A stretch of 30,000 nt of DNA from Halarcobacter sp. (lineage in GTDB: Bacteria; Campylobacterota; Campylobacteria; Campylobacterales; Arcobacteraceae), in the NCBI GenBank assembly GCA_030145305.1, contig JAQYVX010000001.1:299357-329356 (forward strand), in the 5' to 3' direction. Positions 3,479-21,164 of this stretch are shown in pieces. Below the pieces are notes generated by a model. That model worked only from the letters and a program-made list of their open reading frames with translations. It did not search any database and was not told where the DNA came from. The position numbers were made by a program, and so were the translations under genes. Numbering within the stretch: the first letter of the stretch is position 1; every line of letters starts with the position of its first letter.

Positions 3479-4198
3479 CTAACTATTTTTTTTTATCAAT
3501 TTCGTATAGTACTCTTCCAATAAATGTTTATATTCAGGTTTTAGATAAAATCCAAATAATTGATAATAATATTTTATTGTCATAGACAATGCTTTCTCTT
3601 TATCTAAAATACCAATTTTCACATCTTCTAATATTGTTTTATTAAATCTCAAACAAATATCATTAAAAGTTCTTGCACTACATTTTTCTATATATCCATC
3701 TTTTACACAATTTTCTAACATTGTATAACTACGTGAATATAGATTATTTATATGAAACATCTTATCTAAAAATTCAGGACCCTCATGTTCATTTACTTCT
3801 GGATAAAGTTCATAATACTGTTTAGTATACTTTTCAAATTTCTCATCACCATGAGAGAAAAATAGTAATTCAAAAATTTCTGGCTTTTCATAAGCATGTA
3901 TTGAGAAACATTTACAAACTGACATATAAATTTCAATAGAATTTTTACAATCCGAAATACAGTCTACTAAACTGTTATTGTATTCTTCAAGATAATGCAT
4001 ATTTGCAAGAAAAATTAAATGTGATAAGTTATCAAAATAATTATAAAGAGTTGCACTAGTATAACCTGCAAGATTGGCTACATTTCTAATAGTTACTCCC
4101 TCTATTCCTTCTTTTTTTATTATTTCTTCTGTCGCTTCAATAAAATAATTCATTATTCGTTCTTGTTTGAGTTGTATACGTTTTTCTTTAATATCCAT
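3479..4198 (-). CDS. TetR/AcrR-family transcriptional regulator
   Basis: N-terminal helix-turn-helix TIRNVANLAGYTSATLYNYF. It is the last gene in the cai-side gene string and the only regulator in the window. Confidence 0.85.
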   Translation of the reverse strand: MDIKEKRIQLKQERIMNYFIEATEEIIKKEGIEGVTIRNVANLAGYTSATLYNYFDNLSHLIFLANMHYLEEYNNSLVDCISDCKNSIEIYMSVCKCFSIHAYEKPEIFELLFFSHGDEKFEKYTKQYYELYPEVNEHEGPEFLDKMFHINNLYSRSYTMLENCVKDGYIEKCSARTFNDICLRFNKTILEDVKIGILDKEKALSMTIKYYYQLFGFYLKPEYKHLLEEYYTKLIKKNS

Positions 4199-4342
4199 TT
4201 TTTTCCTTTTTATTTATCTAAATGTTATTAATATCTAAACAAATTGTATCAAAGAAATGATCAATAATTTAAATATAATCAAGATTATATTTAAATTATA
4301 TCTTGTTTTACTTATAAAAATATTCAATTTACAATGCCATGA

Positions 4343-5950
4343 TCAAAATAAAACATTTCCTATTGCTTCATTATATGGTAAAGCCCAATATTTTATTAAA
4401 AATATAGTAATAACTATTCCTGAAATAATTAAAACATTAGCATATATTCTATCAATTTTGTAATCTTTTGCTATGATTTCTGTCTTTGGTACAATATGTA
4501 AATTGTTTTGAAAAGATATTTCTTCTTCTGTTTTAATTTGACCACGAGACCCAAGAATTCCAAAAATAATACTAACGAATACTCCTATAAAAAAAGGATG
4601 GAAAAAATTATCAAAAGGCATATCAAAAAATTCTTTTAAACATTTACTAATCAAATATCCAAAAAAACCACCTAACATTGAGAAAAAAGCACCACGTTCT
4701 GTAAGTGTTTTACTCCATACACTTGCAAAGGCTACATAACCCCAAGACGCGGCAATAATAGTACTTGCAAACCAAGCAATAATACGAATTGATGAAAGTT
4801 CTAAATAAGCTAGTATCACAGCTACTAAACTAACAATAAATATTATAACTCTTGTAAAATTAACTTGTGAAGAATCATTTTTAAATTTTATATCAAACAC
4901 ATCAGCTGAAGTACAAAAACTAACTACTGAAAGAAAAGTAGAAGCTGAAGACAATCCTGCTGCCATAATACCTGTTAAAAGAAGAACACCAACAAACTTT
5001 GGAACTATTTCAAAAGCTGTCCATATAATTACTCTCTCTGGTTGAACCATATTTGGATTTAATTGAATAACACTAATAGCCATTAAGTACAAGTATAAAA
5101 GAAAAAATACAGTTAAAATCATTCCAATTGTACCTGCTCTAAAGATAACATGTTCATTTTTAACCATTAAATTTCGTCCAGCTTGCCAAGGACTAACTGC
5201 TAATGTAACCATCCAAACTATACCAATAGTTACTCCATAAAAAATCATATCCATAGCAGATTTTCCATTCGTATTTCCATGATAACTAAGAAGTCCCTCT
5301 GGGGTATTTGGATTATTAAGAAGATTTGTTAATAAATCACTTACTCCTCCTGCTGCTGAAAATATATATTGTCCAGCAATAACAGTTGAAACTAAGAAAA
5401 ATATACACATTATAGTATCTGTAACAAGTACACCACGAGAACCTGAATATATAGTAAAAAACATAATACTTGCCCAAACAAGGATTAAACAGGTTAATCT
5501 ATCAAAGCCTGTCATAGTTTCCATTAACTGACCCGTTCCTTGAAGAACACTCAATAAATAAGAACTTAATGAAAAGATTGTTATCAACCCAGCAAACACC
5601 CGAATTCTTCTACTATTAAATCTTTTCCAAAAATACGCTGGCATAGTATTTACTTTTGACCGCCTTATATAACGCCCAAAATACAATCCACCAATTATAT
5701 AACCACAACCACAAAGAGCATTAATTATAAGTAGTGTTGTGATATTTCCAGTGTAAGCATAAGCAGTATCTCCCATGAAACCATTTGTACTAAGCATCGA
5801 GGCAAACATAGTCCCAGCTATAAATATAGTTGAAGCATTACGCCCAGAAACGTAATAATCTTCTACACTTTTTACTTTTCTACCTACATAAATTCCTACA
5901 AGAAGATAAACAACCATACTAAGAACAACACCAAAAACAAAAACATTCAT
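4343..5950 (-). CDS. Sodium:solute symporter (SSS/SSF) family transporter, substrate unknown
   Basis: 535 aa polytopic membrane protein with the SSF-like N-terminus YYVSGRN and multiple glycine-rich TM helices. Confidence 0.75.
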   Translation of the reverse strand: MNVFVFGVVLSMVVYLLVGIYVGRKVKSVEDYYVSGRNASTIFIAGTMFASMLSTNGFMGDTAYAYTGNITTLLIINALCGCGYIIGGLYFGRYIRRSKVNTMPAYFWKRFNSRRIRVFAGLITIFSLSSYLLSVLQGTGQLMETMTGFDRLTCLILVWASIMFFTIYSGSRGVLVTDTIMCIFFLVSTVIAGQYIFSAAGGVSDLLTNLLNNPNTPEGLLSYHGNTNGKSAMDMIFYGVTIGIVWMVTLAVSPWQAGRNLMVKNEHVIFRAGTIGMILTVFFLLYLYLMAISVIQLNPNMVQPERVIIWTAFEIVPKFVGVLLLTGIMAAGLSSASTFLSVVSFCTSADVFDIKFKNDSSQVNFTRVIIFIVSLVAVILAYLELSSIRIIAWFASTIIAASWGYVAFASVWSKTLTERGAFFSMLGGFFGYLISKCLKEFFDMPFDNFFHPFFIGVFVSIIFGILGSRGQIKTEEEISFQNNLHIVPKTEIIAKDYKIDRIYANVLIISGIVITIFLIKYWALPYNEAIGNVLF

Positions 5951-5954
5951 AAGA

Positions 5955-6080
5955 TTATTTCCCTTCTGTATTTTTTGAACAATACTTTTTTTCTTCTTTG
6001 TACATCTTAATATTAAGGAGTACGCCTATAAAAAACAAACAACTGCCTATAAAAATAGAAAATAATATTTCCCCCATCAT
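5955..6080 (-). CDS. Small (41 aa) single-TM membrane peptide, putative accessory subunit of the downstream symporter (not in the ORF track)
   Basis: Translates as MMGEILFSIFIGSCLFFIGVLLNIKMYKEEKKYCSKNTEGK. A GGAG lies 5 nt before the ATG. The stop is 4 nt before the symporter ATG, with the symporter RBS (GAAGGGAAA) inside its 3' end. Confidence 0.55.
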   Translation of the reverse strand: MMGEILFSIFIGSCLFFIGVLLNIKMYKEEKKYCSKNTEGK

Positions 6081-6107
6081 CTCGCTCCAATAATTTTCAT
6101 GCTTTTA

Positions 6108-6141
6108 TATAAAGCTATATGTATTAACATATAGCTTTATA
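6108..6141. promoter_or_regulatory. Perfect 14-bp inverted repeat (hairpin or operator) between the hydratase gene and the small ORF
   Basis: TATAAAGCTATATG-tattaa-CATATAGCTTTATA. No U-run follows it on the minus strand. Confidence 0.4.
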
Positions 6142-6154
6142 ATTAATCTACTAG

Positions 6155-7006
6155 TTATTTATACTCTGCTAATGCAAAATTTAAATAAATTGTTGCTGGA
6201 TCATCTGCATTAATAACTCTAAAGTGAATAGAGTTATCATCCCATTTCCAAATTTGTGTTGTAACATTAACACCTGGTAATAGTGGTTTTGTAATTCTTG
6301 TTTTAAATCTAGTTAATCTCTCAGAATCACCATCTAATACAGAATTAATAATATGTCTACAAGCAACACCTGCTGTACTTACAGCATGTAAGATAGGTCT
6401 TTCATAACCAATTTCTGCTGCATATTCCCAATCAACATGTTGTGGATGATCATCTCCTGAAAGTCTGTAAACACAAGCTCTATCTTCAGAGATTTTTTCA
6501 GTGATTTCAAAATCTGGCTCTCTTTCAGGAATTTCTACGATATCTTTAGGTGCTTTTGGTCCATTCCAACCACCATCAAAAATACAACAATCTGTACTTT
6601 CATTAGTAAATAATAGTGTTCCATCTTCATCATAAGTTTCACCAAAGTGAACTGCTAAAGTTCCTTTACCTTCACCTCTGTCATATAAACCTTTTAATAA
6701 AACTTTTGTGCTTAATTTACCTTCAAGTTTTTTCATTGGATTAATCATTTTAATATCAAAACTCCAATGTAAAGAACCAGTATAATCATATCCCCAGTCA
6801 ATTGTTTTTGTAACTATTGACTCAACGATAGGACAAGCTGCATACGTAGGAAGCATTTTCATATCTTTTTCGTAAACATATTGTAAATCTGTTTTACCAT
6901 CATATGCTGCTCCACTACCTAGTGCAAATAAACTTAAAGATTTCCAATCATATTCTTTCTCAAACGGACCAAATGTTTGTCCTACCATTTCTGTTTTAAT
7001 TGCCAT
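6155..7006 (-). CDS. MaoC-like / hydratase-2 double hot-dog (R)-specific enoyl-CoA hydratase, in the position of caiD
   Basis: 283 aa. The hydratase-2 motif YRLSGDDHPQHVD lies in the C-terminal half (G184-H190 at 6437-6457). AAGGA RBS 7 nt upstream. Located 31 nt downstream of caiC. Confidence 0.75.
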   Translation of the reverse strand: MAIKTEMVGQTFGPFEKEYDWKSLSLFALGSGAAYDGKTDLQYVYEKDMKMLPTYAACPIVESIVTKTIDWGYDYTGSLHWSFDIKMINPMKKLEGKLSTKVLLKGLYDRGEGKGTLAVHFGETYDEDGTLLFTNESTDCCIFDGGWNGPKAPKDIVEIPEREPDFEITEKISEDRACVYRLSGDDHPQHVDWEYAAEIGYERPILHAVSTAGVACRHIINSVLDGDSERLTRFKTRITKPLLPGVNVTTQIWKWDDNSIHFRVINADDPATIYLNFALAEYK

Positions 7007-7037: not shown

Positions 7038-8612
7038 TTATTTATTTTTATTATCTTTTTCTCTAAGAAGATTTTTTCTTATCTTCCCCGTACTTGTTCT
7101 TGGTAAAGATTTACATATCTCAATAATAGAAGGTACTTTAAAGCAGGCTAAATGTTCAGAACAATATTCCAAAATCTGCTCTTCACTAAACTCTTCACCT
7201 TTTTTTATTACTACAAAAGCTTTAATTAATTCACTGCAAACTTTATCCGCAATGCCAATTACTCCAGCTTCAACTATTTTTGGATGTGCAGATAAAAAGA
7301 TTTCAAGCTCTTCACTTGAAACATTTTCACCAGCACTTTTAATCAAACTTGATTCACGGTCAACAAAATAAAAATACCCATCTTCATCTACATAAGCAAT
7401 ATCACCTGTATGAAGCCAACCATCAGCACTTAATACTTTTTTAGTTGCTTCAATATCATTATAATATTCTTTAAAAATAGTTTTTCCAGGTATCCCTTTA
7501 ACATAAAGTTCGCCTTGAGTATAAGGGCTTACTTCATTTCCTTGACAGTTAATAATTTTTGCTTCATATCCATCACCAACTTTTCCAATAGAAGGCCATC
7601 TACGTTCTTCTCCTGGTCTATCGCCAATTAATCCTACAATTGTTTCAGTCATACCATATGAAGTTAAAAGTCGAACATTAAATCGTTCAAGAAAAGCATC
7701 TTTTTCTTCATCTGAAATTGATAAATAATAAAATACTTCTCTTAAAGAATGTTCTTTTTCCCAAGATTTTGTTTCTTGCATCATTAAAGTGCATATAATC
7801 TTAGGAATACATTCAGTAATCGTTGCTTTATATTTACATACTTGCTTCCAAAACTTTCTCGCACTATATTTTTCAAGAAAAACAAAAGTTGCTCCTGAAA
7901 AAAAAGTAGGTAAAGTAGCTGTGCATTGAGAATCAATATGCCAAGCAGGCATAACTGTCAAATAAATATCATCTTCTTTAATTCTACCTTGCCAAGAAGT
8001 ATAATATCCTGCAAAAAGCATATTATAATGAGTAATTACAACTCCTTTTGGCAATGATGTCGTTCCAGATGTAAATAAAATCTCAACAGCATCTTCAACA
8101 TCTACTTCTACTATCTTATTTAAAGTTGAAGATTGTAATTTTAATTCATTATTGAAATTAATATATGTTTGGTGTTCAAAATTATCATCACGTGCAATTA
8201 AAATATTTTTAACTGAACTAAATCTTTCATTCTTTATTTTTTCATATACACTCAAAACATCATTTTCTATCACAACAAATTTTGGTTTACACTTATTAAC
8301 AATATAAGAACATTCTCGATACAAGTAATGTGCGTTAATAGGCACCATAATGGCGCCTATTTTAGCTAAACCAAACCAACTTATTAATAACTGTGGACTA
8401 TTATGAAGATGAATTGCTACTCTATCTCCTTTTTCAACGCCAAGAGAAAGAAATAAATTTGCAGCTTTATTAATTTCATTATTCAATTCTATATAATTAT
8501 ATTTATTAACTTTTCCATTAATATCTTCAAAAATTAATGCTGTTTTATCACTATAGATTTCCGCAAGAGAATCAAACATCTCTCTTAAGTTTTTATGCTT
8601 CATCTTATCCAT
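7038..8612 (-). CDS. caiC: Crotonobetaine/carnitine-CoA ligase (AMP-dependent synthetase)
   Basis: LFTSGTTSLPKGV AMP-binding motif, plus TSYGMTET, GWLHTGD and a C-terminal GKIRK. Stretches match remembered E. coli CaiC. The start was chosen at M8 because a GAAGGA RBS lies 7 nt upstream; the longest ORF begins at 8633. Confidence 0.85.
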   Translation of the reverse strand: MDKMKHKNLREMFDSLAEIYSDKTALIFEDINGKVNKYNYIELNNEINKAANLFLSLGVEKGDRVAIHLHNSPQLLISWFGLAKIGAIMVPINAHYLYRECSYIVNKCKPKFVVIENDVLSVYEKIKNERFSSVKNILIARDDNFEHQTYINFNNELKLQSSTLNKIVEVDVEDAVEILFTSGTTSLPKGVVITHYNMLFAGYYTSWQGRIKEDDIYLTVMPAWHIDSQCTATLPTFFSGATFVFLEKYSARKFWKQVCKYKATITECIPKIICTLMMQETKSWEKEHSLREVFYYLSISDEEKDAFLERFNVRLLTSYGMTETIVGLIGDRPGEERRWPSIGKVGDGYEAKIINCQGNEVSPYTQGELYVKGIPGKTIFKEYYNDIEATKKVLSADGWLHTGDIAYVDEDGYFYFVDRESSLIKSAGENVSSEELEIFLSAHPKIVEAGVIGIADKVCSELIKAFVVIKKGEEFSEEQILEYCSEHLACFKVPSIIEICKSLPRTSTGKIRKNLLREKDNKNK

Positions 8613-8640
8613 AGCTATTCCTTCTAAAGTCATTGTTAAC

Positions 8641-9864
8641 TTATGCCTTTTTCCCTACATTTACTATTTTACGCTCAGCAAAACCACTGATTTCTTCATC
8701 TGAATAACCAAGATCACTTAATATATCTGCTGTGTCCATACCGTATGATGGTGTTGCACGCCATACTTTACAAGGATTATTTTTGAACTTAGGCATAACA
8801 TTAGGACCTTTACATTTATCTCCTGACATTGTTTCCCATTCAGTAAATGAATCACGAGCTACATATTGAGGATTAGATTGAAGATCTTCTACATCTAATA
8901 CTTTAGCACCCGCAACTTTATAACTTGCAAGTAAAGCTAATGATTCTTCAATAGTTTTTTCTGCAAAGAATGCATCAAGTTTATCTTCTAAAATCTCACC
9001 ACAAGACATACTTCTAGCAATTAATTGTGTACCTTCTGGAATTTCTTCTGTACCAAGTAAATCTGAAATACCAAGTACTTCAAACATTGAACTAACTTGA
9101 GATCCTCCAACAATTTCAAAAACAATATATCCATCACTACATTTATAAAGTCCACAACCACAATATAAAGGATCTTTACCTTTTGTCATACGAGGACACA
9201 TTTCTCCACCATTTAAGTAATCCATCATATAATATTGACCAACTCTAAGCATAACTTCATACATAGCAACATCAATACTTTCACCAACACCTGTTTTCTC
9301 AGCACCATAAACTGCTGCTAAAACTGAACTAGTTACGGCAAATCCAGCCATATAATCAGCGGTATAAGGGAAGGCAGGCATAGGTTGATCTACATCACCA
9401 TTTTGCATTAAGTATCCACTAAATGCTTGTGCAATAGTATTATAAGCAGCTAAATTTGTATACTCAGCAGTACCATATTGTCCAAATCCAGATAAGTGAC
9501 CAATAACTAATTTTTTGTTACGTGCCCAAAGAAGTTCATCAGTAATTCCACGTTTAGCAAAAGCAGGACCTTTACTAGCTTCAATAAATACATCAGCATC
9601 TTCTATTAATTTTAAGAAAACTTCACGCCCTTCATCTGAAAAAACATTTAGTGATAATGCATGAAGATTTCTACGTGATAATTCTGGGTAATTTGGTTGA
9701 ACACGAATTGTATCTGCATAAGCTGAGTGCTCTATCCAAATTACTTCTGCTCCCCATTCTGCAAACATTTGTGCAGAGAATGGACCAGCAATTTCAATTG
9801 CTGAAAAAACAACTTTCATTCCAGCTAGAGGTCCAAATTTTGGTGTTTGTACTTTTTTTGTCAT
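8641..9864 (-). CDS. caiB: Family III CoA-transferase, L-carnitine/gamma-butyrobetainyl-CoA transferase
   Basis: [38 protein letters not shown] and [12 protein letters not shown] closely match remembered E. coli CaiB. Confidence 0.88.
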
Positions 9865-9917: not shown

Positions 9918-11054
9918 TTATCTATATCTTTTTAAAACTTCTCTACCAATAGTTAAAATTTGCATTTCATCTGAACCACCTGATAGTCTATCTATTCTTA
10001 AATCTCTCCAGAAACGACCTACTCTATGTCCAGTTACACCAATTCCTCCAAGAACTTGCATTGATGAATCGATAACACTAAATGCTTCATTTGCACAAAA
10101 ATATTTACACATTGCAGAAGCTCCTGATGTTCCAATTCCTTGATCTGTTTTCCAAGCTGTTTCAAAAATCATATTTTTCATTGCATTTAACTTCATTTCC
10201 ATATGAGCAAATTTTTCTTGAATTAATTGAGTACGACCAATAGCTTCACCAAATTGAACACGTTGGTTAGCATATTTAGCAGCATCTTCAAATGCACATA
10301 AAGCTACACCATAGTTAGTACAAGCTACTAAGAAACGCTCATCATCAAACTCAGCTTTTACACGATTAAAACCTTGACCTTCTTTACCAAAAATATCTTT
10401 TTCTTCTAATTCAACATTATCAAAAACAATTTCACAACAACTATCCATTCTTAGACCAAGTTTATCAAGAGCAGTTAATTTAATACCAGGCTTAGACATA
10501 TCAACAAAGAATTCTGTAAATACAAGAGACTCAGCATCAGCATCTTTTGCCATAACAACTAAATATGGAGTATGTAAACTACTAGTAATAAAACATTTTT
10601 GTCCATTTAAATAAATTTTTCCATCTTTTCTTTTGTATGTTGATTTCATGCTTCCTACATCTGAACCAGCACTTGGTTCAGTAATAGCAGAGTTAAACAT
10701 TTGTTCACCTGTACCACGGAATTTAAAAATTTTATCTATTTGTTCTTGTGAACCATGTCTTAAGATTGTACTAAATCCAGGTAATTGATATAAAACATAC
10801 GTTGGCGCACCATGACGACCTAGTTCTGCCCAAATTGCAGTTAAAGTTACCATGCTTTCCGCCATACCACCATGCTCCTCAGGAAGAAGCATAGTATCAA
10901 TACCTAAATCAGCTAACTCTTTTACCCATCTAATTGGGTATTCATGTTTTTCATCACACTCTGCAAAATATAGTTCCCAATTTTCTCTTTCCATAAGGTC
11001 TCTTACACCTTCAACAAATAATTCTTGTTCATCACTTAATTTAAAATTTATCAT
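9918..11054 (-). CDS. caiA: Crotonobetainyl-CoA reductase (acyl-CoA dehydrogenase family flavoprotein)
   Basis: [54 protein letters not shown] and the terminal LKRYR closely match remembered E. coli CaiA. Confidence 0.88.
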
Positions 11055-11083: not shown

Positions 11084-12601
11084 TTAATACCATTTGTTCT
11101 TTTTTGCATCTTTAAAGAAAGAATAAAGAACCAAGACATTAACAAAAATCAGTGGGAAACCACCGGCAATAATAGCAGTTTGAAGTGGTTTTAATCCTCC
11201 TAGTGCAAGTAAAGTAATACCAATAATACCTACAAGAACAGACCAACCAAGTCTTACCCATAATGGAGGCTCAGTATAACCATCAGCTTCTTTACAAGTT
11301 GACATTGCTAAAGTATATGAACAAGCATTGATCAAAGTAACTGTAGCAAGGAAACAAAGAATAAAGAATCCCCAGATTGTAATTGTAGATAAAGGTAATG
11401 CTGCCCATGCTTCAATAATAGCTCTTGGAACACCTTCATCTTTTACAATTTGAGGTATATTAATTAGATTTTGTTTCATAATATTAACTGTATTACTTCC
11501 AAGAATAGTCCACATAGACCAAGTAGTTGCAGTAAGACCAGCTACCATAACAAAACAAACTTCTCTAACTGTACGACCTCTTGAAATACGAGCTAAGAAG
11601 ATACACATTTGAATACCAAATGTAACCCACCATGCCCAATAGAAAACTGTCCAACCTTGAGGGAAACCACCATCACGGATAGCATCTGTATAGAAAAGCA
11701 TTCTAGAAAGACTATCTAACATAATCCCAACAGAATCTGTAAAATAATTTACTGTAAAAGTTGTTCCACCAATAATTAGTACCCATACTAACATGATAAT
11801 TGAAAGGTAACTTCTTACATCAGATGCCATTTTAATACCTTTTGTTAAACCAAAAGCAACACAAATAGCATTAAAAATAACCCAACAAGCAATAATTGCA
11901 CTATCAACTTGTAATGTACGTTCAATTCCAAATAACCACTCAATACATTCTGTAACAAGAGGAGTAGCTAAACCTAAACTTGTTCCCATTGCAAGAATAA
12001 GTGCAACAATATAGAAGTTATCAATTACAGTACCAAGCCATCCTTTAGAAAGCTTCTCTCCAATAGCCGCTTCAACACAACCACTAGGACGCATTACATT
12101 TATTTTTTTAACATAAATAAAATAACCAAAAGCAACAGTTAAAACAGCATATCCAGCCCATGGTAATGGACCCCAGTGGAATAAACTGTAAGCAACACCA
12201 AACTCTTGTGCTGCAGGAGAAAATGCCTCAATTGCAAATGGTGGATAAGCTATATAATAGTAAGCTTCAATAGTTCCCCAATAAAGAACAGCAGCAGATG
12301 TACAAGATGCGAACATCAAGAAAATCCAACTTCCCGTACTAAATTCTGGTTTTTCTTCACCAAGTGTATTATTTTTCATAGGACCAAAAGCTAGCCATGC
12401 CCAAATGATTCCAAAAATAACCATATACCACTCAAACAACCATCCCCAACTATTTGTTACATAACCAAATAATGAGTTAATAGCTGCATTTGCTGCATCT
12501 AAGTCTCTAACAACTAGGTAACCAAGAATTACCACGACAATAAGTGACGGGAAAAATATTTTAGGTTCAATACCTACTTTTTTCACTTCTTTCTCTTCCA
12601 C
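11084..12601 (-). CDS. caiT: BCCT-family L-carnitine/gamma-butyrobetaine antiporter
   Basis: [20 protein letters not shown] and [15 protein letters not shown] (BCCT signature) are present. The 505 aa length and long stretches match remembered E. coli CaiT. Confidence 0.9.
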
Positions 12602-12682: not shown

Positions 12683-12751
12683 AAATCACGATATTTTACA
12701 AATCGTGATTTTTACTACCGAAATCATACTCTCATTAGTTTTAATTGTCAA
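12683..12751 (-). promoter_or_regulatory. caiT promoter with two downstream operator copies
   Basis: On the minus strand: TTGACA (12746-12751), a 17-nt spacer, then TATGAT (12723-12728). Operators AATCGTGATT (12701-12710) and AATCACGATA (12684-12693) form the inverted repeat AAATCACGAT-N9-ATCGTGATTT. Confidence 0.6.
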
Positions 12752-12883
12752 GTAAAATTAACTTAAAATTCTAATTTTATAATTAATATTTAATTAAGGT
12801 AAAGAATTATTTACTTAAGTTAATTATAAGAGTAGTGTTTTTATGGGATTTTAAAAATATGATTTATTTAAAGTGTGTCATTT

Positions 12884-12899
12884 TATAATCATGATTATA
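12884..12899 (+). promoter_or_regulatory. ribB upstream 16-bp perfect palindrome overlapping a TATAAT box
   Basis: TATAATCATGATTATA contains TATAAT (12884-12889) and the AATCATGATT core (12887-12896). It lies 56 nt upstream of the ribB ATG. Confidence 0.5.
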
Positions 12900-12954: not shown

Positions 12955-14013
12955 ATGAATTTACTTAGAAATAATGATAAGTCAATTGAGGCAATTGAAA
13001 GAGTATGCCAAGCAATTGAAGATGTTAGACAAGGTAAAATGGTTGTTATGGTTGATGATGAAGATAGAGAGAATGAGGGAGATTTAGTTTATGCTGCTTC
13101 TTTCTCAACTCCTGAAAAAGTTAATTTTATGGCTTCACATGCAAAAGGGCTTATTTGTGTAGCCCTTTCAAAAAAAATAGCTTCACGTTTGGAGCTTACT
13201 CCAATGGTTAAGAATAATGATTCTTCTTATGAAACAGCTTTTACAATTTCTGTTGATGCAAAAGATGCAGAAACAGGGATATCTGCTATTGAAAGAGATA
13301 TGACTATTAAAATCTTATCTGACAATAATTCAGAAGCTGCAGAATTAGTAAGACCAGGACATATTTTCCCTCTTATTGCAAAAGAAGGTGGAGCATTAGT
13401 AAGAACTGGTCATACAGAAGGATCTGTCGATTTATGTAAATTAGCTGGATTAGGTGAAGCTAGTGTTATTTGTGAAGTTATGAAAGAAGATGGAACAATG
13501 GCAAGAAGACCTGATCTTGATATTTTCTGTGAAAAGCATGAACTAAATATTGTTTATATCTCTGACATTGTTGAATATCGTATGATGAATGAGTCATTAA
13601 TTAATCTTGAAAAAGAATCAACTCAAGTATTTCTTGGTGCACAAGCAAAAAAATATGATTTTCGAGATCATTTAGATAATAATCACATTGTTTACACTTT
13701 TGGAGAGTTTAGTAATCGTGCTGCTGTAAAATTTCATTCTATTATTCCTGATAATGAACTACTAGCATCAACTGAAAAATATGATGAAATGATAAATAGT
13801 ATTAAATATTTACAAAAAAATAGTGGTATTTTGGTTTTCATGGATAGCAATACTAAAAATATGACTCAAATTAGAGAATATGGAATAGGAGCACAGCTTC
13901 TTAAATATTTAGGAATAGAAGAGATTGAGCTTCTTAGTAATAGTAAAACAATAGAACTTGTGGGAATTAGTGGTTTTGGGTTAAGTGTAACAAAATTAAT
14001 TAGTTTAAAATAA
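12955..14013 (+). CDS. ribB: 3,4-dihydroxy-2-butanone-4-phosphate synthase with a degenerate C-terminal GTP-cyclohydrolase-II-like domain
   Basis: DDEDRENEGDL, RPGHIFPL and RTGHTEGSVDL are DHBP synthase motifs. The C-terminal ~150 aa lacks the Cys triad seen in RibA. Confidence 0.9.
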   Translation: MNLLRNNDKSIEAIERVCQAIEDVRQGKMVVMVDDEDRENEGDLVYAASFSTPEKVNFMASHAKGLICVALSKKIASRLELTPMVKNNDSSYETAFTISVDAKDAETGISAIERDMTIKILSDNNSEAAELVRPGHIFPLIAKEGGALVRTGHTEGSVDLCKLAGLGEASVICEVMKEDGTMARRPDLDIFCEKHELNIVYISDIVEYRMMNESLINLEKESTQVFLGAQAKKYDFRDHLDNNHIVYTFGEFSNRAAVKFHSIIPDNELLASTEKYDEMINSIKYLQKNSGILVFMDSNTKNMTQIREYGIGAQLLKYLGIEEIELLSNSKTIELVGISGFGLSVTKLISLK

Positions 14014-14026: not shown

Positions 14027-14063
14027 AAAAGCCAAGTATTTTTGAATACTTGGCTTTTTTTTT
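14027..14063. terminator. Bidirectional rho-independent terminator (ribB / porin)
   Basis: AAAA-GCCAAGTATT-tttg-AATACTTGGC-TTTTTTTTT forms a 10-bp stem flanked by A and T runs. Confidence 0.8.
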
Positions 14064-15201
14064 AGATAGAGAATGGAAAAGTTAGATTAACTCTTAATTC
14101 TTTTTCATCTTTATCTCTACCTGCATCATCATAAAGAACAGCAACATTTAAATCTTTAAATACTCCTGCATCAAATGTATAATCTGCTGTAACACTTGTA
14201 TATGAGTATTCTTTATCATCATAATCATCAAGAACATAATTCATACCAACATTTAGTGCAGGCGTTAATTTATAAGCTACACCAATTTTATATGCATCAC
14301 TATTTGCACCATATGTATCTGATAGAATTGGAGAACCTGTATATGCATAATCTGCACCATTTCCTAATCCTGCATGTACATATGCATCACCAGTTGTTGT
14401 ATAAGCTGCTAATAATGATAAATTACCTAAATCAAAAGTAGCTTTTAAACCAAATAAATCTGTGTCTTTTGAACCCTCTTTTTCACTATCATAATATTGT
14501 GAAGCAAGTCCAAATATTCCTTTTTTAAATGAAGCTTCTGCATATGTAACTTCCATAAGATCTTTTGCATCTAAATAAGCTAAAGTAAGATTTACATTTG
14601 GAATTGAAGAATTTTCTACTACTGCTGTATAAGCACCATCTACTAATTCACCTTGCCAAGTAAAGTCTCTTGTAAATTTACCAAAGTTACCATCTCCATC
14701 TGTACGATTTTGCATTTTTTGAACATATCCAATAGTTACTTTTGTATCAGGGATATCTGAATTAGTAATTAAAGCACCTTCAAAAGATTCTCTATTCATA
14801 CGTGAACCACTTCCATAAATAAGTGGTGTAGCAAAATACATTCGCCCAATTTGTGCTGTAGTTTTGCCAGCAGCATATGAAAGATAAAGTTCTGATAATT
14901 GAGAACCTGACCCATACATATCACTATTAAATACACTTTCAGCATCATCATCTGAGAAAGGTGAAGATGAAGATTGGAAAGTTGATTTTAAACCAAAACC
15001 ATAGAAACGTCCTGTTTCATAACTAAGATCTAAACCAAAATTCATAATATCAGCATCTACACCTTTATCACGTTGCCAATAATAAGCCTGAACTTTACCT
15101 TCTACCTTACCTTCTTTAAAGGCATCTGCCAAACTATCTGCACCAAATGCAGATGAACTTAAAGCAATAATTGCTGCTAGACTAAATTTAACTAATTTCA
15201 T
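14062..15201 (-). CDS. Outer-membrane beta-barrel porin (OprD-like / Campylobacterota porin family)
   Basis: Start taken at MKLVKFSLAAIIALSSSAFG|ADS, which gives a signal peptide and has an AAGGAG RBS 5 nt upstream. Sequence is rich in G/Y/D/S/T with alternating beta-strand patterns. The ORF-track start at 15228 lacks an RBS. Confidence 0.75.
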   Translation of the reverse strand: MKLVKFSLAAIIALSSSAFGADSLADAFKEGKVEGKVQAYYWQRDKGVDADIMNFGLDLSYETGRFYGFGLKSTFQSSSSPFSDDDAESVFNSDMYGSGSQLSELYLSYAAGKTTAQIGRMYFATPLIYGSGSRMNRESFEGALITNSDIPDTKVTIGYVQKMQNRTDGDGNFGKFTRDFTWQGELVDGAYTAVVENSSIPNVNLTLAYLDAKDLMEVTYAEASFKKGIFGLASQYYDSEKEGSKDTDLFGLKATFDLGNLSLLAAYTTTGDAYVHAGLGNGADYAYTGSPILSDTYGANSDAYKIGVAYKLTPALNVGMNYVLDDYDDKEYSYTSVTADYTFDAGVFKDLNVAVLYDDAGRDKDEKELRVNLTFPFSI

Positions 15202-15222
15202 AATATCTCCTTGAAAATTTAT

Positions 15223-15308
15223 AATCACGATTAATAAAACATAGCGATGATTTAAAAATCATGATTAATAAGTTCTGAATTGTACTGTAATGTTTAATCA
15301 ATTGTCAA
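15223..15308 (-). promoter_or_regulatory. Porin promoter with operator copies
   Basis: On the minus strand: TTGACA (15303-15308), an 18-nt spacer, then TACAAT (15279-15284). Operators are AATCATGATT (15257-15266), a degenerate copy (15243-15252) and AATCACGATT (15223-15232). Confidence 0.6.
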
Positions 15309-15510: not shown

Positions 15511-15535
15511 AATAAAAAAGAGGGAGTATCCTCTT
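15511..15535 (-). terminator. Rho-independent terminator after caiE
   Basis: The minus strand reads AAGAGG-atactc-CCTCTT followed by TTTTTATTTTT, 10 nt after the caiE stop. Confidence 0.6.
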
Positions 15536-15544
15536 CTTTATTTA

Positions 15545-16135
15545 TTAACTATTTTTAGGAGTATAGTCCATTTCAAATCTTTTAGCATTTCTAGCAGGAG
15601 TTAATTCTTTTAATGGCTCACAAGATTTAAAATCTTTTAAACATCGTGTGGTTAAATCAATATACGATTGTGTACTTTCTCTTTTCCACTCAATTTCTTC
15701 TTCACGCAACTCTCTTTTTACTTTTGCTGGAATACCAAGGGCAAGATGATTATCAGGAATATTCATCATCCCAGGAACAAGAGAAGAAGCTCCAACAATG
15801 GAATTACAACCAACTACAGCCTTATCCATTATCACAGCACCCATTCCAACCATTGCGTTATTTTTTATATGACAACTATGTAAAATTGCACTATGTCCAA
15901 TATGACCGTTTTCTTCAATAATAGTATCTATTCCTGTATATCCATGTAAAATGCAACAATCTTGTATATTAACATTTTTTCCAATGAGAATACGTCCAAA
16001 ATCGCCTCTTATAGAACTATTTGGTCCTATATAAGAACCTTCTTCAATAATTACATCACCTATAATTACAGCACTTTCATGAACAAATGCTTTTTCGTTA
16101 ATAACAGGTTTAATACCATCAATTTCATAAATCAT
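15545..16135 (-). CDS. caiE: Carnitine operon protein CaiE (hexapeptide-repeat / gamma-carbonic-anhydrase-like)
   Basis: FVHESAVIIGDVII, IRGDFGRILIG, NIQDCCILHG and ENGHIGHSAILH are present, and the sequence is collinear with remembered E. coli CaiE. Length 196 aa. Confidence 0.85.
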   Translation of the reverse strand: MIYEIDGIKPVINEKAFVHESAVIIGDVIIEEGSYIGPNSSIRGDFGRILIGKNVNIQDCCILHGYTGIDTIIEENGHIGHSAILHSCHIKNNAMVGMGAVIMDKAVVGCNSIVGASSLVPGMMNIPDNHLALGIPAKVKRELREEEIEWKRESTQSYIDLTTRCLKDFKSCEPLKELTPARNAKRFEMDYTPKNS

Positions 16136-16173: not shown

Positions 16174-16461
16174 TTAACCGTAACGATACTCAACACCAAA
16201 TGTTCCATTTGGATATTCCCATTTTTTTAAAATAGTTTTACCACATAAAATACGGCATGTTCCACATTCTAAGCAACCAGCATAATCAAACTTGAAATTT
16301 CCATTGTCATCTCTTTTGTATAAGCCAGCAGGACACGCTGCTTCTAATTTTTTGAATTCAATTAAATCTGGTTTATCAACTAACTCAATATGAGCTTCAC
16401 CTTCATCAACAAAAAATTTATTAACACCTAGTTTAACATCAACATTTACTGAATTTTTCAT
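16174..16461 (-). CDS. fixX: Ferredoxin-like protein FixX
   Basis: 95 aa with CPAGLY and CLECGTCRILC cysteine motifs. It overlaps the fixC stop by 4 nt. Confidence 0.88.
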   Translation of the reverse strand: MKNSVNVDVKLGVNKFFVDEGEAHIELVDKPDLIEFKKLEAACPAGLYKRDDNGNFKFDYAGCLECGTCRILCGKTILKKWEYPNGTFGVEYRYG

Positions 16462-17772: not shown

Positions 17773-18714
17773 TTACTGTTTAAGGGCATTAATTACAGCA
17801 GGTAGAATAGTATAAAGATCCCCTACTATCCCATAATCAGCATAGTCAAAAATTGGTGCATTTTTATCTTTATTCACAGCTACAATTATCTGTGAATCTT
17901 TAGCACCTACCATATGTTGGATTTGTCCAGAAATACCAACTGCAAAATAGATTTCAGGTTTAGCCATAACACTTGAAATACCAATGTAACGTTCATGTTC
18001 CATCCATTTTTCACCTTCTGCTATAGGTCTTGAACATCCTAATTCTGCATCGAATAAAGAACAAAGTTCTTCTGCAATTTTAATATCTTCTTCTTTTGCA
18101 ATACCACGTCCAATTGCAACAATACGTTTTGCTTTATTTAAATCAACACTACTTCCTTCTTTAGGAAGTCTATTAATACATTTAACACCACTATTGTTTT
18201 CAACAAAATCTACAACTTTAGCTTCACCAGATTTAGAAGTATCAATCTCTTTTCCTTCATATAATCCACCTGATATTACAGCAATAGAAACATTTGTTTT
18301 TATTAATTCTTCACTAATTGCTAATCCACCATATGCTAAATGTTTACATTTAACACCAGCTTCATCAATCTCAATATTAGATACTTCTGTTACAACACCA
18401 GCGTTTAATTCAGCACCAAGTAATGAAGCTAATGCTTTACATCTTTTTGTTCCTGGCATTAATACTAATGATTTACCTTCACTTGCTGCAATAACTTTTG
18501 CAATAGTTTTAGAATAACTTTCTATGATTTTACTAGAATCATATTCTCCTAGATTATAAACTTCATTTGCTCCATAAGCATATGCATCTGACACTTGTTC
18601 AGAACCAATAACTAATGCAGAAACATTTTCTCCTAATTCTAAACCTCCAGCTATTACTTCTGGTAAACGTGCAGAGGTATCACTAAAAACCCATATATTT
18701 GATAACTTACTCAT
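17773..18714 (-). CDS. fixB: Electron transfer flavoprotein alpha subunit FixB
   Basis: The C-terminal FAD-binding region reads PEIYFAVGISGQIQHMVG...IVAVNKDKNAPIF. Length 313 aa. Confidence 0.88.
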   Translation of the reverse strand: MSKLSNIWVFSDTSARLPEVIAGGLELGENVSALVIGSEQVSDAYAYGANEVYNLGEYDSSKIIESYSKTIAKVIAASEGKSLVLMPGTKRCKALASLLGAELNAGVVTEVSNIEIDEAGVKCKHLAYGGLAISEELIKTNVSIAVISGGLYEGKEIDTSKSGEAKVVDFVENNSGVKCINRLPKEGSSVDLNKAKRIVAIGRGIAKEEDIKIAEELCSLFDAELGCSRPIAEGEKWMEHERYIGISSVMAKPEIYFAVGISGQIQHMVGAKDSQIIVAVNKDKNAPIFDYADYGIVGDLYTILPAVINALKQ

Positions 18715-18729
18715 TCTATCCTCCGACTA

Positions 18730-19488
18730 TTAAATAATTTTTCGTAAATGACTAACAAACTCAGAAATTTTATCATCTGAGTCACCTTCGATAATAATAT
18801 GTTGTCGTTCTTTTTTCTTAGGTGCTTTAATATCAACAAGCTCCACTAAATCTTGATTATCTTCTTCACTACTCATAGTATTAACAGGTTTTTTACCTGC
18901 TCCAATAATAGCTTTCATTCCAGGAATTGAAGGTTGATTAATATCAGCAGAAACAGAAATTACAGCTGGTAAAGAAACTTCTAAAACTTCAATTTCGTTT
19001 TCTAAAGCTCTTTCTACTACTAATTTATCTTCTTCAACAGATACAATTTTAGATACTGAGTTAACAACTGATACATTTAAAATAGCTCCAAGTCTAACAC
19101 CTGTTTGCTGTGCATAAATATCACCAGAACCGTCACCACAAAGAATTAAATCAAAACCAACATTTTTTGCAGTTTCAGCAAAAATTTTTGCTGTTTGATG
19201 TGGTAAAATATTTTCATATTTTTCATCACTTACAATAACTAATTCATCTGGTCCACGAGATAGCATATCTTTTCGTGATTTTACATTATCAAGAGATTTC
19301 CCCCCAATACTTACCGCACAAATAGTAGATTCTGCATTATTTTTTTTGATTTCAACTGCTGCTTCAATAGCATTAAGGTCAAATTGACTTATTTTTGGTG
19401 ATGCCTTACTAGTATCAAGACTACCATCATTATTAACTTTAATATCTTGATCTTCGGGTACTAACTTACACCCAACTAAAATTTTCAT
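18730..19488 (-). CDS. fixA: Electron transfer flavoprotein beta subunit FixA
   Basis: ETF-beta features are present: MKILVGCKLVPE, NAIEAAVEIK and LILCGDGSGD. Length 252 aa. Confidence 0.88.
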   Translation of the reverse strand: MKILVGCKLVPEDQDIKVNNDGSLDTSKASPKISQFDLNAIEAAVEIKKNNAESTICAVSIGGKSLDNVKSRKDMLSRGPDELVIVSDEKYENILPHQTAKIFAETAKNVGFDLILCGDGSGDIYAQQTGVRLGAILNVSVVNSVSKIVSVEEDKLVVERALENEIEVLEVSLPAVISVSADINQPSIPGMKAIIGAGKKPVNTMSSEEDNQDLVELVDIKAPKKKERQHIIIEGDSDDKISEFVSHLRKII

Positions 19489-19542: not shown

Positions 19543-19596
19543 AAATCATGATTTATTTATAATCAGAATATTACACTAATCATGATTACTTGTCAA
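19543..19596 (-). promoter_or_regulatory. fixA promoter with one operator inside the spacer and one downstream
   Basis: On the minus strand: TTGACA (19591-19596), a 17-nt spacer, then TAATAT (19568-19573). TAATCATGATTA (19577-19588) lies within the spacer and AAATCATGATTT (19543-19554) lies downstream. Confidence 0.6.
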
Positions 19597-19660
19597 GGAT
19601 TTTACTTAATTTATTTAACATTAATTAAAATTTAATATTAATTTAAGTTTTGTGGGTAAT

Positions 19661-20539
19661 TTATCTATATCTTTTTAATATCGTATGGTACATTGCATTA
19701 GCAAATATTTTATTAGTTGTATAACTAAAATGCCATTCATCCCAAAAATAATACTCACTTTCATCACCAGAAGAAGTCATAATTTCAGGGTAAGTACTTT
19801 GATACTCTTTTGTTAATACTTTTAAATCATATTTATTAGGATTTTGTACAATATCATTACTTACAGAAGTATGATCAAATTCGATTATTGATACATTTAA
19901 TTCATTTTGCAACTCTTTTAAATTTCTTGGAAGATTTTCATTAACAATTTTTACAAACTCTTTTGCAGAATTTATTCTATTCATAGTATTTTCATAAGGA
20001 ACAAGAGATAAATCACTACAATTTACAACAAAAAACTTTTTGCCACCAATTTTTGCTAGTTTTTTTATAGCATTCTTTATATTATCAATTACAGTATAAG
20101 CTAACTCTTCAATACTTCCTTGTTTGTTGAAATCCATATATGCAAAATAGTCATTTTCAGAAGCAAAAATAAAATAAAGAGTATTTGAATCTATTTCATT
20201 TGTAGATAAATTCTTTTCAAATCTATCAATTTGTCCTAGCACTCCTGTATCACCTAAATAATCCATCCAGTCTGTATAATTTTCTTTACCAGAAGTTGCA
20301 CCACCTGTTGCATAACTTACTAAGTTTACATCAAGTCTTTTTGCTAATAATTCAACAGCTGCATACCCATTTGAATATCTTCCATTCCAATATAATCCTT
20401 CTGTTGGTTTTAAAAACGCATCTTTTGGACTATTTTCTTTAGATAAAATTGTTGAAGATATTCTTCTTGCTTCTCCATTATCTGAATAACTATTACCAAA
20501 TGCAATTACTTGACTTATTTTATTTTCATTTTTTGACAT
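19661..20539 (-). CDS. SGNH/GDSL-family esterase/lipase with no signal peptide
   Basis: Block I is AFGNSYSDNG, block II-like is NGRYSNG, and block V is FWDEWH (D-x-x-H). AAGGAAA RBS. Located 19 nt downstream of ribA. Confidence 0.75.
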   Translation of the reverse strand: MSKNENKISQVIAFGNSYSDNGEARRISSTILSKENSPKDAFLKPTEGLYWNGRYSNGYAAVELLAKRLDVNLVSYATGGATSGKENYTDWMDYLGDTGVLGQIDRFEKNLSTNEIDSNTLYFIFASENDYFAYMDFNKQGSIEELAYTVIDNIKNAIKKLAKIGGKKFFVVNCSDLSLVPYENTMNRINSAKEFVKIVNENLPRNLKELQNELNVSIIEFDHTSVSNDIVQNPNKYDLKVLTKEYQSTYPEIMTSSGDESEYYFWDEWHFSYTTNKIFANAMYHTILKRYR

Positions 20540-20558
20540 AAATTTTCCTTTTTATTAA

Positions 20559-21164
20559 TTAAAGAAGATGACCCATTTGTTCTTTTTTTGTTTTAAGATA
20601 TTCAGCATTATATTTATTACTTGAGATAATTATGGGTAGTCTTTTAATAATATCAACACCCTTTATTGAGTTTATTTTCTTAGGATTATTAGTAAGTAAA
20701 TTTATTTTTTTGATATTATAATATGAAAGTATAAACTCGACAACTTGGTATGAGCGTTCATCTGCTTTAAATCCTAATTGATGATTAGCTTGAATTGTGT
20801 CATATCCTTGATCTTGCAAAGCATAAGCATTAACTTTATTAAACAATCCTATATCTCTGCCCTCTTGTCTTAAATAAATTACCATGCCTTTCTCTTCAAA
20901 TATAGTTTTCAAAGAATAATCAAGTTGTTCACCACAATCACATTTTAACGAGCCAAAAGCATCTCCTGTTAAACATTCACTATGAATACGAATTGTTGGT
21001 ATTTCAGTCATCTCTTTTGAAGATACAACCAAATGTTCTTTGTAACCTTCTTGAAAAGATTGAATATTAAATGTTCCAAAAGATGTAGGTAAGTTTGCAA
21101 TATTTGAAACTTTTATTTCTGCGTTTTGTTTTATTGTGCGTATAGTCATTTTATCAACTCTCAT
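20559..21164 (-). CDS. ribA: GTP cyclohydrolase II
   Basis: IHSECLTGDAFGSLKCDCGEQL zinc-site motif and YLRQEGRDIGL. An alternative start exists at M6 (21149). Confidence 0.9.
   Translation of the reverse strand: MRVDKMTIRTIKQNAEIKVSNIANLPTSFGTFNIQSFQEGYKEHLVVSSKEMTEIPTIRIHSECLTGDAFGSLKCDCGEQLDYSLKTIFEEKGMVIYLRQEGRDIGLFNKVNAYALQDQGYDTIQANHQLGFKADERSYQVVEFILSYYNIKKINLLTNNPKKINSIKGVDIIKRLPIIISSNKYNAEYLKTKKEQMGHLL

Follow-up and report, generated by a model that had tools for sequence, protein, structure and literature searches.

The anaerobic carnitine pathway of Escherichia coli and Proteus is encoded by caiTABCDE and fixABCX, two divergently arranged units, and involves a crotonase, CaiD, and an activator, CaiF. 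How could such a pathway be completed and controlled where neither of these two proteins is encoded? The question is raised by a stretch of 30,000 nt (from here: the window) of Halarcobacter sp. (Campylobacterota; Arcobacteraceae; assembly GCA_030145305.1, contig JAQYVX010000001.1, positions 299,357 to 329,356 of the forward strand), in which a preliminary description had recognized a rearranged cai/fix carnitine-respiration locus with other genes interleaved. We report here that this locus is probably a working-type system for anaerobic carnitine (crotonobetaine) reduction, with an architecture characterized by a MaoC-type protein and organized as a repressor-controlled regulon.

The window has a GC content of about 29%, and between 3.0 and 22.4 kb nearly all genes are located on the minus strand. 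The map order is panD, tetR, a sodium:solute symporter (SSS) gene with an open reading frame (ORF) of 41 codons, an ORF of 283 codons, caiC, caiB, caiA, caiT, ribBA (plus strand), a porin gene, caiE, fixX, fixC, fixB, fixA, an SGNH esterase gene, ribA and panE (plus strand). The flanking genes nagZ, hemE, asd, gyrA and argJ have housekeeping functions. A host of the Campylobacterota type, as suggested before, was borne out by GyrA, whose 90% cluster includes Poseidonibacter lekithochrous. Exact or nearly exact copies of the window proteins are found in metagenome-assembled genomes of Halarcobacter sp., in which the names CaiT and CaiA are already given by the NCBI pipeline.

The Cai and Fix proteins

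NCBIfam models were scored against their curated equivalog cut-offs, and the proteins were compared by BLASTP with the annotated cai/fix region of E. coli K-12, which yielded full-length matches throughout. All genes of this set are on the minus strand. Scores above the cut-offs were obtained for the antiporter CaiT for carnitine/gamma-butyrobetaine (11084..12601; NF002887, 843.7 bits versus 541; 69% identity to E. coli), the crotonobetainyl-coenzyme A (CoA) reductase CaiA (9918..11054; NF002885, 694 bits versus 540; 73% to E. coli and 81% to Desulfobaculum), the carnitine CoA-transferase CaiB (8641..9864; NF002914, 661.4 bits versus 413; 69% to E. coli) and the betaine:CoA ligase CaiC (7038..8633; NF005947, 790.7 bits versus 651; 54% to E. 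coli). FixA (18730-19488; 360.8 bits versus 219; 55% to E. coli) and FixC (16458-17744; 614.1 bits versus 610; 58%) passed their cut-offs as well. FixB (17773-18714; 347 bits versus 549; 47%) and FixX (16174-16461; 136 bits versus 166; 62%) did not, nor did the product of the last gene in the fix unit, a CaiE/PaaY-like hexapeptide-repeat protein (15545..16135; 47% to E. coli CaiE), which stayed below the cut-offs of both the CaiE model (226.5 bits versus 305) and the PaaY model (263.6 bits versus 319.6).

Hence, the orthology proposed in the preliminary description held up, with identities to K-12 of 54-73% for CaiT, CaiA, CaiB and CaiC and of 47-62% for FixABCX and CaiE; the low identities that would have spoken against it were not seen on full-length alignment. 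By these comparisons, the proteins, with CaiE as the less certain case, qualify as true orthologues and not as generic acyl-CoA dehydrogenase, CoA-transferase or electron transfer flavoprotein paralogues. Lengths that had been called near-identical to those of E. coli are exactly equal for FixX (95 amino acids, aa), FixC (428 aa) and FixB (313 aa). The gene order of FixABCX is the same as well, including an identical 4-bp overlap of fixC and fixX.

The layout departs from the divergent enterobacterial arrangement, as had been stated: cai and fix run co-directionally on the minus strand, 3 kb apart, with ribBA and the porin gene between them. The reported fusion of caiE to the end of fixABCX turned out to be wrong, as caiE forms a gene of its own, 38 bp downstream of fixX, and is followed by a terminator-like hairpin with a T-run at 15518-15540. 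The absence of caiD and caiF was reproduced, since tblastn of the window found no match to E. coli CaiD (best E value 5.6) or CaiF (best E value 2.0). In a metagenome contig 98-99% identical to the window (L010, 4049-5424), caiB is in two pieces, either by a frameshift or pseudogene or by an assembly error.

A MaoC-type hydratase in the position of caiD

An ORF directly after caiC had been overlooked. This gene (6155..7006, minus strand) starts 31 bp past caiC and encodes a MaoC/hydratase-2 double hot-dog protein of 283 aa, here predicted to be a carnitinyl-CoA dehydratase. The Pfam models PF22622 (44.7 bits) and PF01575 (57.9 bits) both match above the cut-off of 27, while the NCBIfam search of this protein gave no match. 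Residues 8-264 align with the hydratase-2 domain of human MFE-2 (PDB 1S9C) at an E value of 4e-33. In this alignment GDDHPQH is matched with GDWNPLH, and Asp185 and His190 occupy the catalytic positions, the Asp and His of GDWNPLH being the catalytic pair of hydratase 2. An AlphaFold2 model with a mean predicted local distance difference test (pLDDT) of 73.9 gave Foldseek TM-scores of 0.83 to 1S9C and 0.84 to 3KHP.

The hydratase 2 of peroxisomal MFE-2 (1S9C, 1PN4) and the mycobacterial MaoC-type dehydratase 3KHP share with the window protein the double hot-dog fold, the Pfam domains and the catalytic Asp and His. In contrast to them, the window protein, 25-31% identical, stands alone and has His for the Asn of the motif and Gln for an aliphatic residue; moreover, its family is found in cai/fix clusters, and its predicted substrate bears a trimethylammonium group. 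In an alignment of 15 family members, the motif His is invariant and the Asp is present in all 13 members of the first type but replaced in both maoC2-type members. Conservation across phyla is unusually high: 273 database clusters match at E <1e-10, and the full-length matches listed are mostly 50-92% identical.

Some observations concern the surroundings and variants of this gene. A hairpin with a perfect 12-bp stem (TAAAGCTATATG...CATATAGCTTTA) and no T-run is located at 6110-6139, in the gap that separates maoC from the small ORF; it may be an element of RNA processing or stability, or a weak terminator. A second pair, caiB2 (60% identical to CaiB) and maoC2 (49-55%), is present in some relatives (L012, 6222-8340; L013, 10962-13046; L015, 9108-9956) and absent from the window. 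In the maoC2 clade, which includes the proteins P0097 and P0106, the catalytic Asp is changed to Cys, Ile or Asn and the His is kept. In the cultured type strain Malaciobacter halophilus DSM 18005 (L042), a MaoC gene fragment 82% identical lies on a 681-bp high-coverage contig, with the locus unassembled.

Distribution of MaoC-type cai/fix clusters

When one genome per species was scanned, 233 species genomes turned out to encode a MaoC relative, and the best 80 loci were mapped by tblastn. All three of caiA, caiB and caiC lie within 10 kb of maoC in 69 of the 80, and at least two fix genes are near maoC in 67. Among the loci having full flanks, 47 of 49 contain both the cai and the fix set; one of the two exceptions is L012, a close relative of the window with the fix genes farther off, as in the window itself. 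Among 70 scorable loci, maoC has caiC directly upstream in 53 and caiD in 14 (together 67/70). Within the best 80, an E. coli-type CaiD (83-88% identical) occurs only in 15 loci of Shewanella and Ferrimonas and is missing from those of Campylobacterota, Desulfovibrionales, Geopsychrobacteraceae, Endozoicomonas, Sutterella, Bacillota and Actinomycetota. Outside Shewanella and Ferrimonas, no crotonase was found within 10 kb of maoC in the loci mapped, and the related Campylobacterota loci contain no gene of the ECH family.

The gene order is caiT-A-B-C-caiD-maoC-caiE in a Shewanella genome, caiT-A-B-C-maoC-fixAB, symporter, fixCX in Desulfobaculum and MFS, alpha/beta-hydrolase, caiA-B-C-maoC, MFS, fixABCX in Salana and Arcanobacterium. 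Several maoC clusters have MFS or SSS transporters in place of CaiT or besides it. With its architecture, the locus groups with loci of Desulfovibrionales and Endozoicomonas, not with enterobacterial ones. The carriers include gut- or host-associated Sutterella, Actinomyces, Winkia, Trueperella and Bacillus massilioanorexius as well as marine Arcobacteraceae, Endozoicomonas and Desulfovibrionales, and carriage of a MaoC relative by a plasmid was found only once (Curtobacterium).

Because the family co-occurs with cai and fix genes in dozens of genera and CaiD is confined, in the loci mapped, to Shewanella and Ferrimonas, the MaoC-type protein is, as judged by gene content, a signature component of cai/fix clusters outside the Enterobacterales. 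In most MaoC-type clusters outside this order, gene neighbourhood leaves it as the sole candidate for the dehydration step.

A cluster of like layout has been described for Propionibacterium freudenreichii, consisting of genes for an MFS protein, an alpha/beta-hydrolase, caiABC, an 'enoyl-CoA hydratase', a second MFS protein and fixABCX (Roder et al. 2024, PMC11007987). Possession of the whole cluster is associated, among strains, with a loss of acylcarnitines and with higher carnitine and putative gamma-butyrobetaine, and the authors stated that the hydratase and MFS 'might fill' the CaiD and CaiT gaps, with no family, distribution or regulon being defined (PMC11007987). This cluster, too, is CaiD-less; its caiC is followed by the gene of another kind of hydratase, an esterase is associated with it, and its layout matches the Actinomycetota loci mapped here (L003, L005; Salana, Arcanobacterium). 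It differs from the window in having MFS transporters instead of CaiT, an alpha/beta-hydrolase instead of an SGNH/ChoE-type esterase, and a different regulator.

A shared candidate operator and a TetR-type regulator

The candidate repressor of the locus in the stead of CaiF is a TetR-family regulator (3479..4198, minus strand; PF00440 TetR_N, 33.1 bits versus 24). Its best NCBIfam match is a weak BetI-like N-terminus with 32 bits versus a cut-off of 201, and comparison with solved structures gave generic helix-turn-helix matches only. Orthologues 53-72% identical are encoded in cai loci of Campylobacterota, Desulfobaculum, Maridesulfovibrio and Geopsychrobacteraceae.

The palindrome AATCATGATT occurs in the window in five exact copies, compared to 0.27 expected from shuffles. 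All five are intergenic and within the locus; for the intergenic DNA, 3.1 kb in all, the expectation is 0.014. Of the sigma-70-type promoter matches from 3.0 to 22.5 kb, the best four are positioned directly upstream of ribA, the porin gene, caiT and fixA, each with a perfect TTGACA and all on the minus strand. At the fixA promoter match (19543..19596; TTGACA-17-TAATAT), TAATCATGATTA is situated within the spacer at 19577-19588 and a second copy follows 34 bp downstream at 19543-19554. The ribA promoter match (21245..21273; TTGACA-17-TATAAT, 12/12) likewise has TAATCATGATTA within its spacer, at 21254-21265. At the porin gene (15222..15308; TTGACA-18-TACAAT at 15308-15279), two operators lie past the -10 element and 34 bp apart, an exact one at 15256-15267 and one with a single mismatch at 15222-15233. 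At caiT (12684..12751; TTGACA-17-TATGAT at 12751-12723, 11/12), two operator-like sites follow the -10 element, 12701-12710 with one mismatch and 12684-12693 with two; the inverted repeat there is AAATCACGAT-N9-ATCGTGATTT. A further exact palindrome TAATCATGATTA is found at 12886..12897, 58 nt upstream of ribBA, and an operator-like palindrome TAATCAAGATTA, with one mismatch to TAATCATGATTA, at 4276..4287, which is 78-89 nt upstream of tetR.

A repeat search of the window showed the fixA and ribA promoters to be 85% identical over 39 nt and the promoter regions of caiT and the porin gene to be 78% identical over 67 nt (12743-12809 and 15300-15366). The latter likeness extends about 60 nt upstream of the -35 element and includes TTAATTAAGG; this shared stretch may be the site for a second regulator.

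Four further Campylobacterota loci have the palindrome upstream of caiT, tetR, the esterase gene and maoC-fixA, often as pairs 17 or 34 bp apart, a spacing that is common to the window, L006, L008 and L012. Operator-like sites upstream of tetR are at a like position in L006, L008 and L013, and sites 51-54 nt upstream of ribBA exist in L006 and L012. Palindromes with one mismatch are present upstream of caiT in loci of 48-60% GC, those of Desulfobaculum, Geopsychrobacteraceae and Maridesulfovibrio. All relatives' loci with palindrome sites upstream of these genes carry the TetR orthologue. Loci with this orthologue contain 15 exact palindromes in 222 kb, compared to one in 1335 kb for the 72 loci without it.

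From the placement of the palindrome and its co-occurrence with the tetR gene, we infer that the TetR protein would act as repressor at the AATCATGATT sites in place of CaiF, and that ribA, and probably ribBA too, would be co-regulated with the flavoproteins CaiA, FixAB and FixC. The porin, esterase, ribA, ribBA and TetR genes had been described as interleaved. Given one palindromic operator in common and near-identical promoters, they look instead like a single regulon.

These findings bear on an alternative explanation, in which the locus is a rearranged enterobacterial-type cai/fix set minus caiD and caiF, with unrelated genes interleaved, and either uses crotonobetaine only or relies on a hydratase encoded elsewhere. 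The missing CaiD and CaiF would fit, and so would the fluid gene order around panE in relatives and the fact that ribBA, ribA, panD and panE are ordinary biosynthetic genes scoring above their family cut-offs. We consider it quite unlikely, because a gene with hydratase fold occupies the caiD slot and accompanies caiABC and fix in about 70 genera-level loci, the promoters of the porin gene, ribA-esterase, fixA and caiT share the operator and are 78-85% alike pairwise, and the architecture groups with non-enterobacterial loci.

Esterase, porin, symporter and riboflavin genes

The SGNH esterase (19661..20539, minus strand) is a predicted cytoplasmic O-acylcarnitine hydrolase. It is homologous over its full length to ChoE of Pseudomonas aeruginosa (PDB 6UQV, E value 8e-61), an enzyme which cleaves short acyl esters of a quaternary-ammonium alcohol; the alignment covers residues 8-283, matches FGNSYSDNG, the nucleophile block with the block-I Ser, with FGDSYSDNG and retains DEWH as the C-terminal D-x-x-H motif. 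The alignment begins at residue 8 and, unlike ChoE, the window esterase has no leader peptide. Some of its homologues carry the name cholinesterase ChoE. Precedents for an acylcarnitine esterase encoded in a carnitine operon are HocS/ACH of aerobic carnitine operons, and acylcarnitine hydrolases have been reported within carnitine operons of Pseudomonas and Acinetobacter (PMC13631058). Based on these precedents and on the association in P. freudenreichii (PMC11007987), the enzyme may serve to free carnitine from O-acylcarnitines. In L008 and L013, Campylobacterota loci at a greater distance, an alpha/beta-hydrolase takes the place of the esterase, a second case of an unrelated enzyme in a like position; the L013 copy adjoins ribA and fixA.

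The Opr/MOMP-type outer-membrane porin (14062..15198, minus strand) reaches 60.5 bits with NF033923, which is below the cut-off, and 51 bits with Pfam OprD. The listed ORF extends over 14062-15228 with a GTG start, which is probably wrong: the ATG at 15198 follows AAGGAG and opens a typical signal peptide, MKLVKFSLAAIIALSSSAFG. With the start at this ATG, the operator at 15222-15233 falls in the leader. Porins are also encoded in L006 and L008.

The SSS-family sodium:solute symporter (4343..5950, minus strand; Pfam SSF, 117 bits) scores under all NCBIfam equivalog cut-offs, with the best family scores being far below those of PanF and PutP. Its orthologues, 59-85% identical, are encoded within cai/fix loci of Desulfovibrionales, Endozoicomonas and Campylobacterota. 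Positioned 4 nt upstream of the symporter gene, the small ORF (5955..6080, minus strand) encodes a conserved single-pass membrane protein of 40/41 aa. The mini-peptide mentioned in the preliminary description is a real gene: an ORF beginning MGEIIFSxFIGxCL lies ahead of each symporter orthologue, across three phyla and at genomic GC contents between 28% and 60%. Its product is a probable small symporter subunit.

RibBA (12955..14013, plus strand; NF006804, 544 bits versus 432) consists of 3,4-dihydroxy-2-butanone 4-phosphate synthase and a partial C-terminal GTP cyclohydrolase II domain, of which the Pfam model is matched over the last third only. GTP cyclohydrolase II, RibA (20559..21164, minus strand; NF001591, 260.6 bits versus 148), is encoded by the first gene of the ribA-esterase unit. 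Because the second domain of RibBA is only partial, RibA may be the sole active GTP cyclohydrolase II encoded in the window. In L013, ribA is located next to the hydrolase in the esterase position and the fix genes.

Proposed pathway

Taken together, (acyl)carnitine would pass the outer membrane via the Opr-type porin and, as homology suggests, the inner membrane via CaiT, with gamma-butyrobetaine being exchanged out. The sodium symporter with its 40-aa subunit would import some pathway substrate, and the ChoE-like cytoplasmic esterase would release carnitine from its O-acyl esters. By homology, CaiC is expected to prime the cycle with CoA and CaiB to move CoA from the product to fresh carnitine. 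The MaoC/hydratase-2 protein, as suggested by gene position, co-occurrence and intact catalytic residues, would dehydrate carnitinyl-CoA to crotonobetainyl-CoA in the stead of the crotonase CaiD. Reduction of crotonobetainyl-CoA is assigned to CaiA, with electrons presumably delivered by FixABCX, in line with homology and E. coli genetics. The TetR protein would repress all units via the AATCATGATT palindromes, which lie over or after the promoters of caiT, the porin gene, fixA, ribA-esterase and tetR and before ribBA. With operators at ribA, ribBA and the flavoprotein promoters, both entry enzymes of riboflavin synthesis may be induced along with the flavoproteins.

That the MaoC-type protein replaces CaiD appears fairly probable to us. 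For the wider statement that the MaoC/hydratase-2 family is the usual carnitinyl-CoA dehydratase outside the Enterobacterales, with CaiD as a gammaproteobacterial addition and with a TetR regulon in Arcobacteraceae that comprises the esterase, porin and riboflavin steps, we see even chances.

Several points weigh against these assignments. Canonical hydratase-2 enzymes make or use (3R)-hydroxyacyl-CoA. From the priority rules, we take L-(R)-carnitinyl-CoA to be spatially equivalent to (3S)-hydroxyacyl-CoA, the product of crotonases; an unchanged hydratase 2, being (R)-specific, is therefore expected to handle D-carnitinyl-CoA. The MaoC family may have an altered facial selectivity, or may use D-carnitinyl-CoA or another substrate. 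The family has another invariant His where the hydratase-2 motif G-D-x-N-P-x-H has Asn. Shewanella and Ferrimonas encode CaiD alongside the MaoC protein, which speaks against simple redundancy. Furthermore, FixB, FixX and CaiE score under their curated NCBIfam cut-offs, the absence of CaiD refers to the 30-kb window and a crotonase may be encoded elsewhere in the genome, and TetR is tied to the operator by correlation. Finally, the proposed membership of the P. freudenreichii hydratase in the MaoC family is derived from gene order, which matches that of other Actinomycetota.

A different task of the MaoC enzyme could be to act on the D enantiomer, with CaiD and MaoC together functioning as a carnitinyl-CoA racemase, or on another 3-substituted betaine-CoA; in that case, the substrate of MaoC-only clusters would be something else than free L-carnitine. 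Such a task would agree with the stereochemistry expected of hydratase 2 from general enzymology and the priority rules, with the 15 Shewanella and Ferrimonas loci that have CaiD and MaoC together, with the second caiB2-maoC2 pair in some genomes, where maoC2 is without the catalytic Asp, and with the MFS and SSS transporters that replace or supplement CaiT in several clusters. We hold it to be unlikely, if worth keeping in view: CaiT, CaiA, CaiB and CaiC of the window are equivalog-level matches to L-carnitine enzymes, MaoC-only clusters would otherwise be without an entry from carnitine, and P. freudenreichii strains with a cluster of like layout show altered levels of carnitine and of putative gamma-butyrobetaine (PMC11007987).

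Origin of the locus

The cai/fix genes had been described as less AT-rich than their surroundings, and as compatible with horizontal acquisition for that reason. The difference itself exists, with a GC content of 0.326 compared to 0.293 for housekeeping genes, but the excess is wholly due to codon positions 1 and 2. At third positions (GC3) the values are 0.131 and 0.128, and codon-usage fractions correlate with r = 0.97. Because silent sites and codon usage match those of the housekeeping genes, the GC difference reflects amino-acid composition, not foreign DNA. Composition was accordingly rejected as a sign of transfer, as the per-gene GC1, GC2 and GC3 values and codon fractions gave no silent-site difference.

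The interval from panD to panE had been suggested as a frame for comparing synteny. A metagenome scan with PanE identified 15 loci, of which only that of the same species (98%) has a like neighbourhood; near the PanE relatives at 75-82% identity, none of the other window genes is found within 10 kb. This frame was dropped, since the panE neighbourhood differs in relatives. Arcobacteraceae relatives with MaoC proteins 90-96% identical to that of the window retain the order ribBA / caiTABC-maoC-small ORF-symporter-tetR-panD-MBL; in L008 and L013 (MaoC 73-79% identical) these genes are found in changed order.

Beyond the Campylobacterota, the window locus is closest in content and sequence to loci of Desulfovibrionales. 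Identities to Desulfobaculum are 81% for CaiA, 81% for FixX, 76% for FixC, 70% for MaoC, 66% for the symporter and 54% for TetR, and across the Desulfovibrionales they are 80-84% for CaiA, 81-85% for FixX and 76% for FixC. These very high cross-phylum identities might suggest that the region is a genomic island gained in recent times by insertion between panD and panE, and two tRNA-Asn genes 1.3 kb past the right end as well as transposase remnants in a relative could be cited in its favour. The latter are the fragments HTH_21 and rve between the porin gene and ribBA of L006 (2343-3033; MaoC 91% identical), a position where the window has none. A recent insertion is nevertheless very unlikely, because GC3 and codon usage equal those of housekeeping genes, panE is not a conserved boundary, the gene order is retained or the same genes are reordered in the relatives, and the window is without integrase or insertion-sequence genes and flanking direct repeats, in accordance with what had been noted before. 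With the composition matching that of the host, no mobility marks and an order kept in relatives, any transfer would be old. An old transfer between phyla is likely from the high identity of CaiA, FixX and FixC, and the likeness to Desulfovibrionales may point to an old exchange among marine anaerobes.

Neighbouring genes

The gene panD for aspartate 1-decarboxylase (3033..3416, minus strand; TIGR00223, 174.5 bits versus 106) is located 62 nt downstream of tetR, and its membership in the carnitine system is uncertain. The motif search of the window found no operator of its own. In each of the Campylobacterota cai loci, panD adjoins the gene of either the symporter or TetR; in L008 its start overlaps the symporter stop codon, and in the Ferrimonas loci panD is about 4 kb from the cluster. 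Its coordinates are 7590-7955 in L008, 14924-15301 in L013 and 14995-15345 in L050. This adjacency may indicate a link to CoA supply or merely inherited synteny.

A protein of about 200 aa with a metallo-beta-lactamase (MBL) fold (glyoxalase-II-like) is encoded next to cai clusters of Campylobacterota, Desulfovibrionales and Actinomycetaceae (window, 2386-2979; L004, 762-1391; L005, 12263-12892). It may be a thioesterase, or its recurrence may be due to chance. As a conserved accessory gene it was dropped, the identity between the three lineages being only about 30%. Just past panE, two identical tRNA-Asn(GTT) genes are situated at 22416-22490 and 22526-22600, 110 bp from start to start. An Rfam search for riboswitches and other known RNAs near the rib genes returned the two tRNAs only.

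Relation to known carnitine systems

The window shares with E. coli and Proteus the proteins CaiT, CaiA, CaiB, CaiC and FixABCX and, less surely, CaiE (47-73% identical), the lengths of FixB, FixC and FixX, the fixC/fixX overlap and the predicted chemistry from carnitine to gamma-butyrobetaine. In contrast, it has a hot-dog-fold hydratase in the slot of the crotonase CaiD and a TetR-type gene with a palindromic operator where those bacteria have the activator CaiF; its cai and fix units are co-directional and 3 kb apart, with caiE after fixX; and its set is extended by porin and esterase genes, by a sodium symporter with its probable small subunit and by genes of riboflavin synthesis. Control by a TetR-type protein would recall BetI, the choline-sensing TetR-family repressor of the bet operon, which governs quaternary-amine metabolism. 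The likeness of the window protein to BetI is limited to the N-terminal DNA-binding part, and the ligand domains are unrelated.

A full-text search of the literature retrieved no paper that ties a MaoC-family protein to the cai pathway and nothing on carnitine metabolism in Arcobacteraceae. The locus is a variant of a known carnitine system and was partly anticipated for P. freudenreichii; the widespread MaoC-type cai/fix architecture is largely uncharacterised. Gamma-butyrobetaine formed from carnitine by bacteria is an intermediate on the route to trimethylamine and trimethylamine N-oxide. Surveys of producers look for the intact enterobacterial caiTABCDE set, as in the gamma-BMGC database (PMC11857547). 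With this set as the search criterion, such surveys would miss CaiD-less clusters, including those of human-associated Sutterella and Actinomycetaceae.

For enzymology, a stereochemical question arises from a hydratase of hot-dog fold in the place of the expected crotonase. The shared operator predicts a regulon in which a respiratory pathway is coupled to the provision of its flavin cofactor. For the Arcobacteraceae, the locus suggests that animal-associated members of this family respire host-derived (acyl)carnitine.

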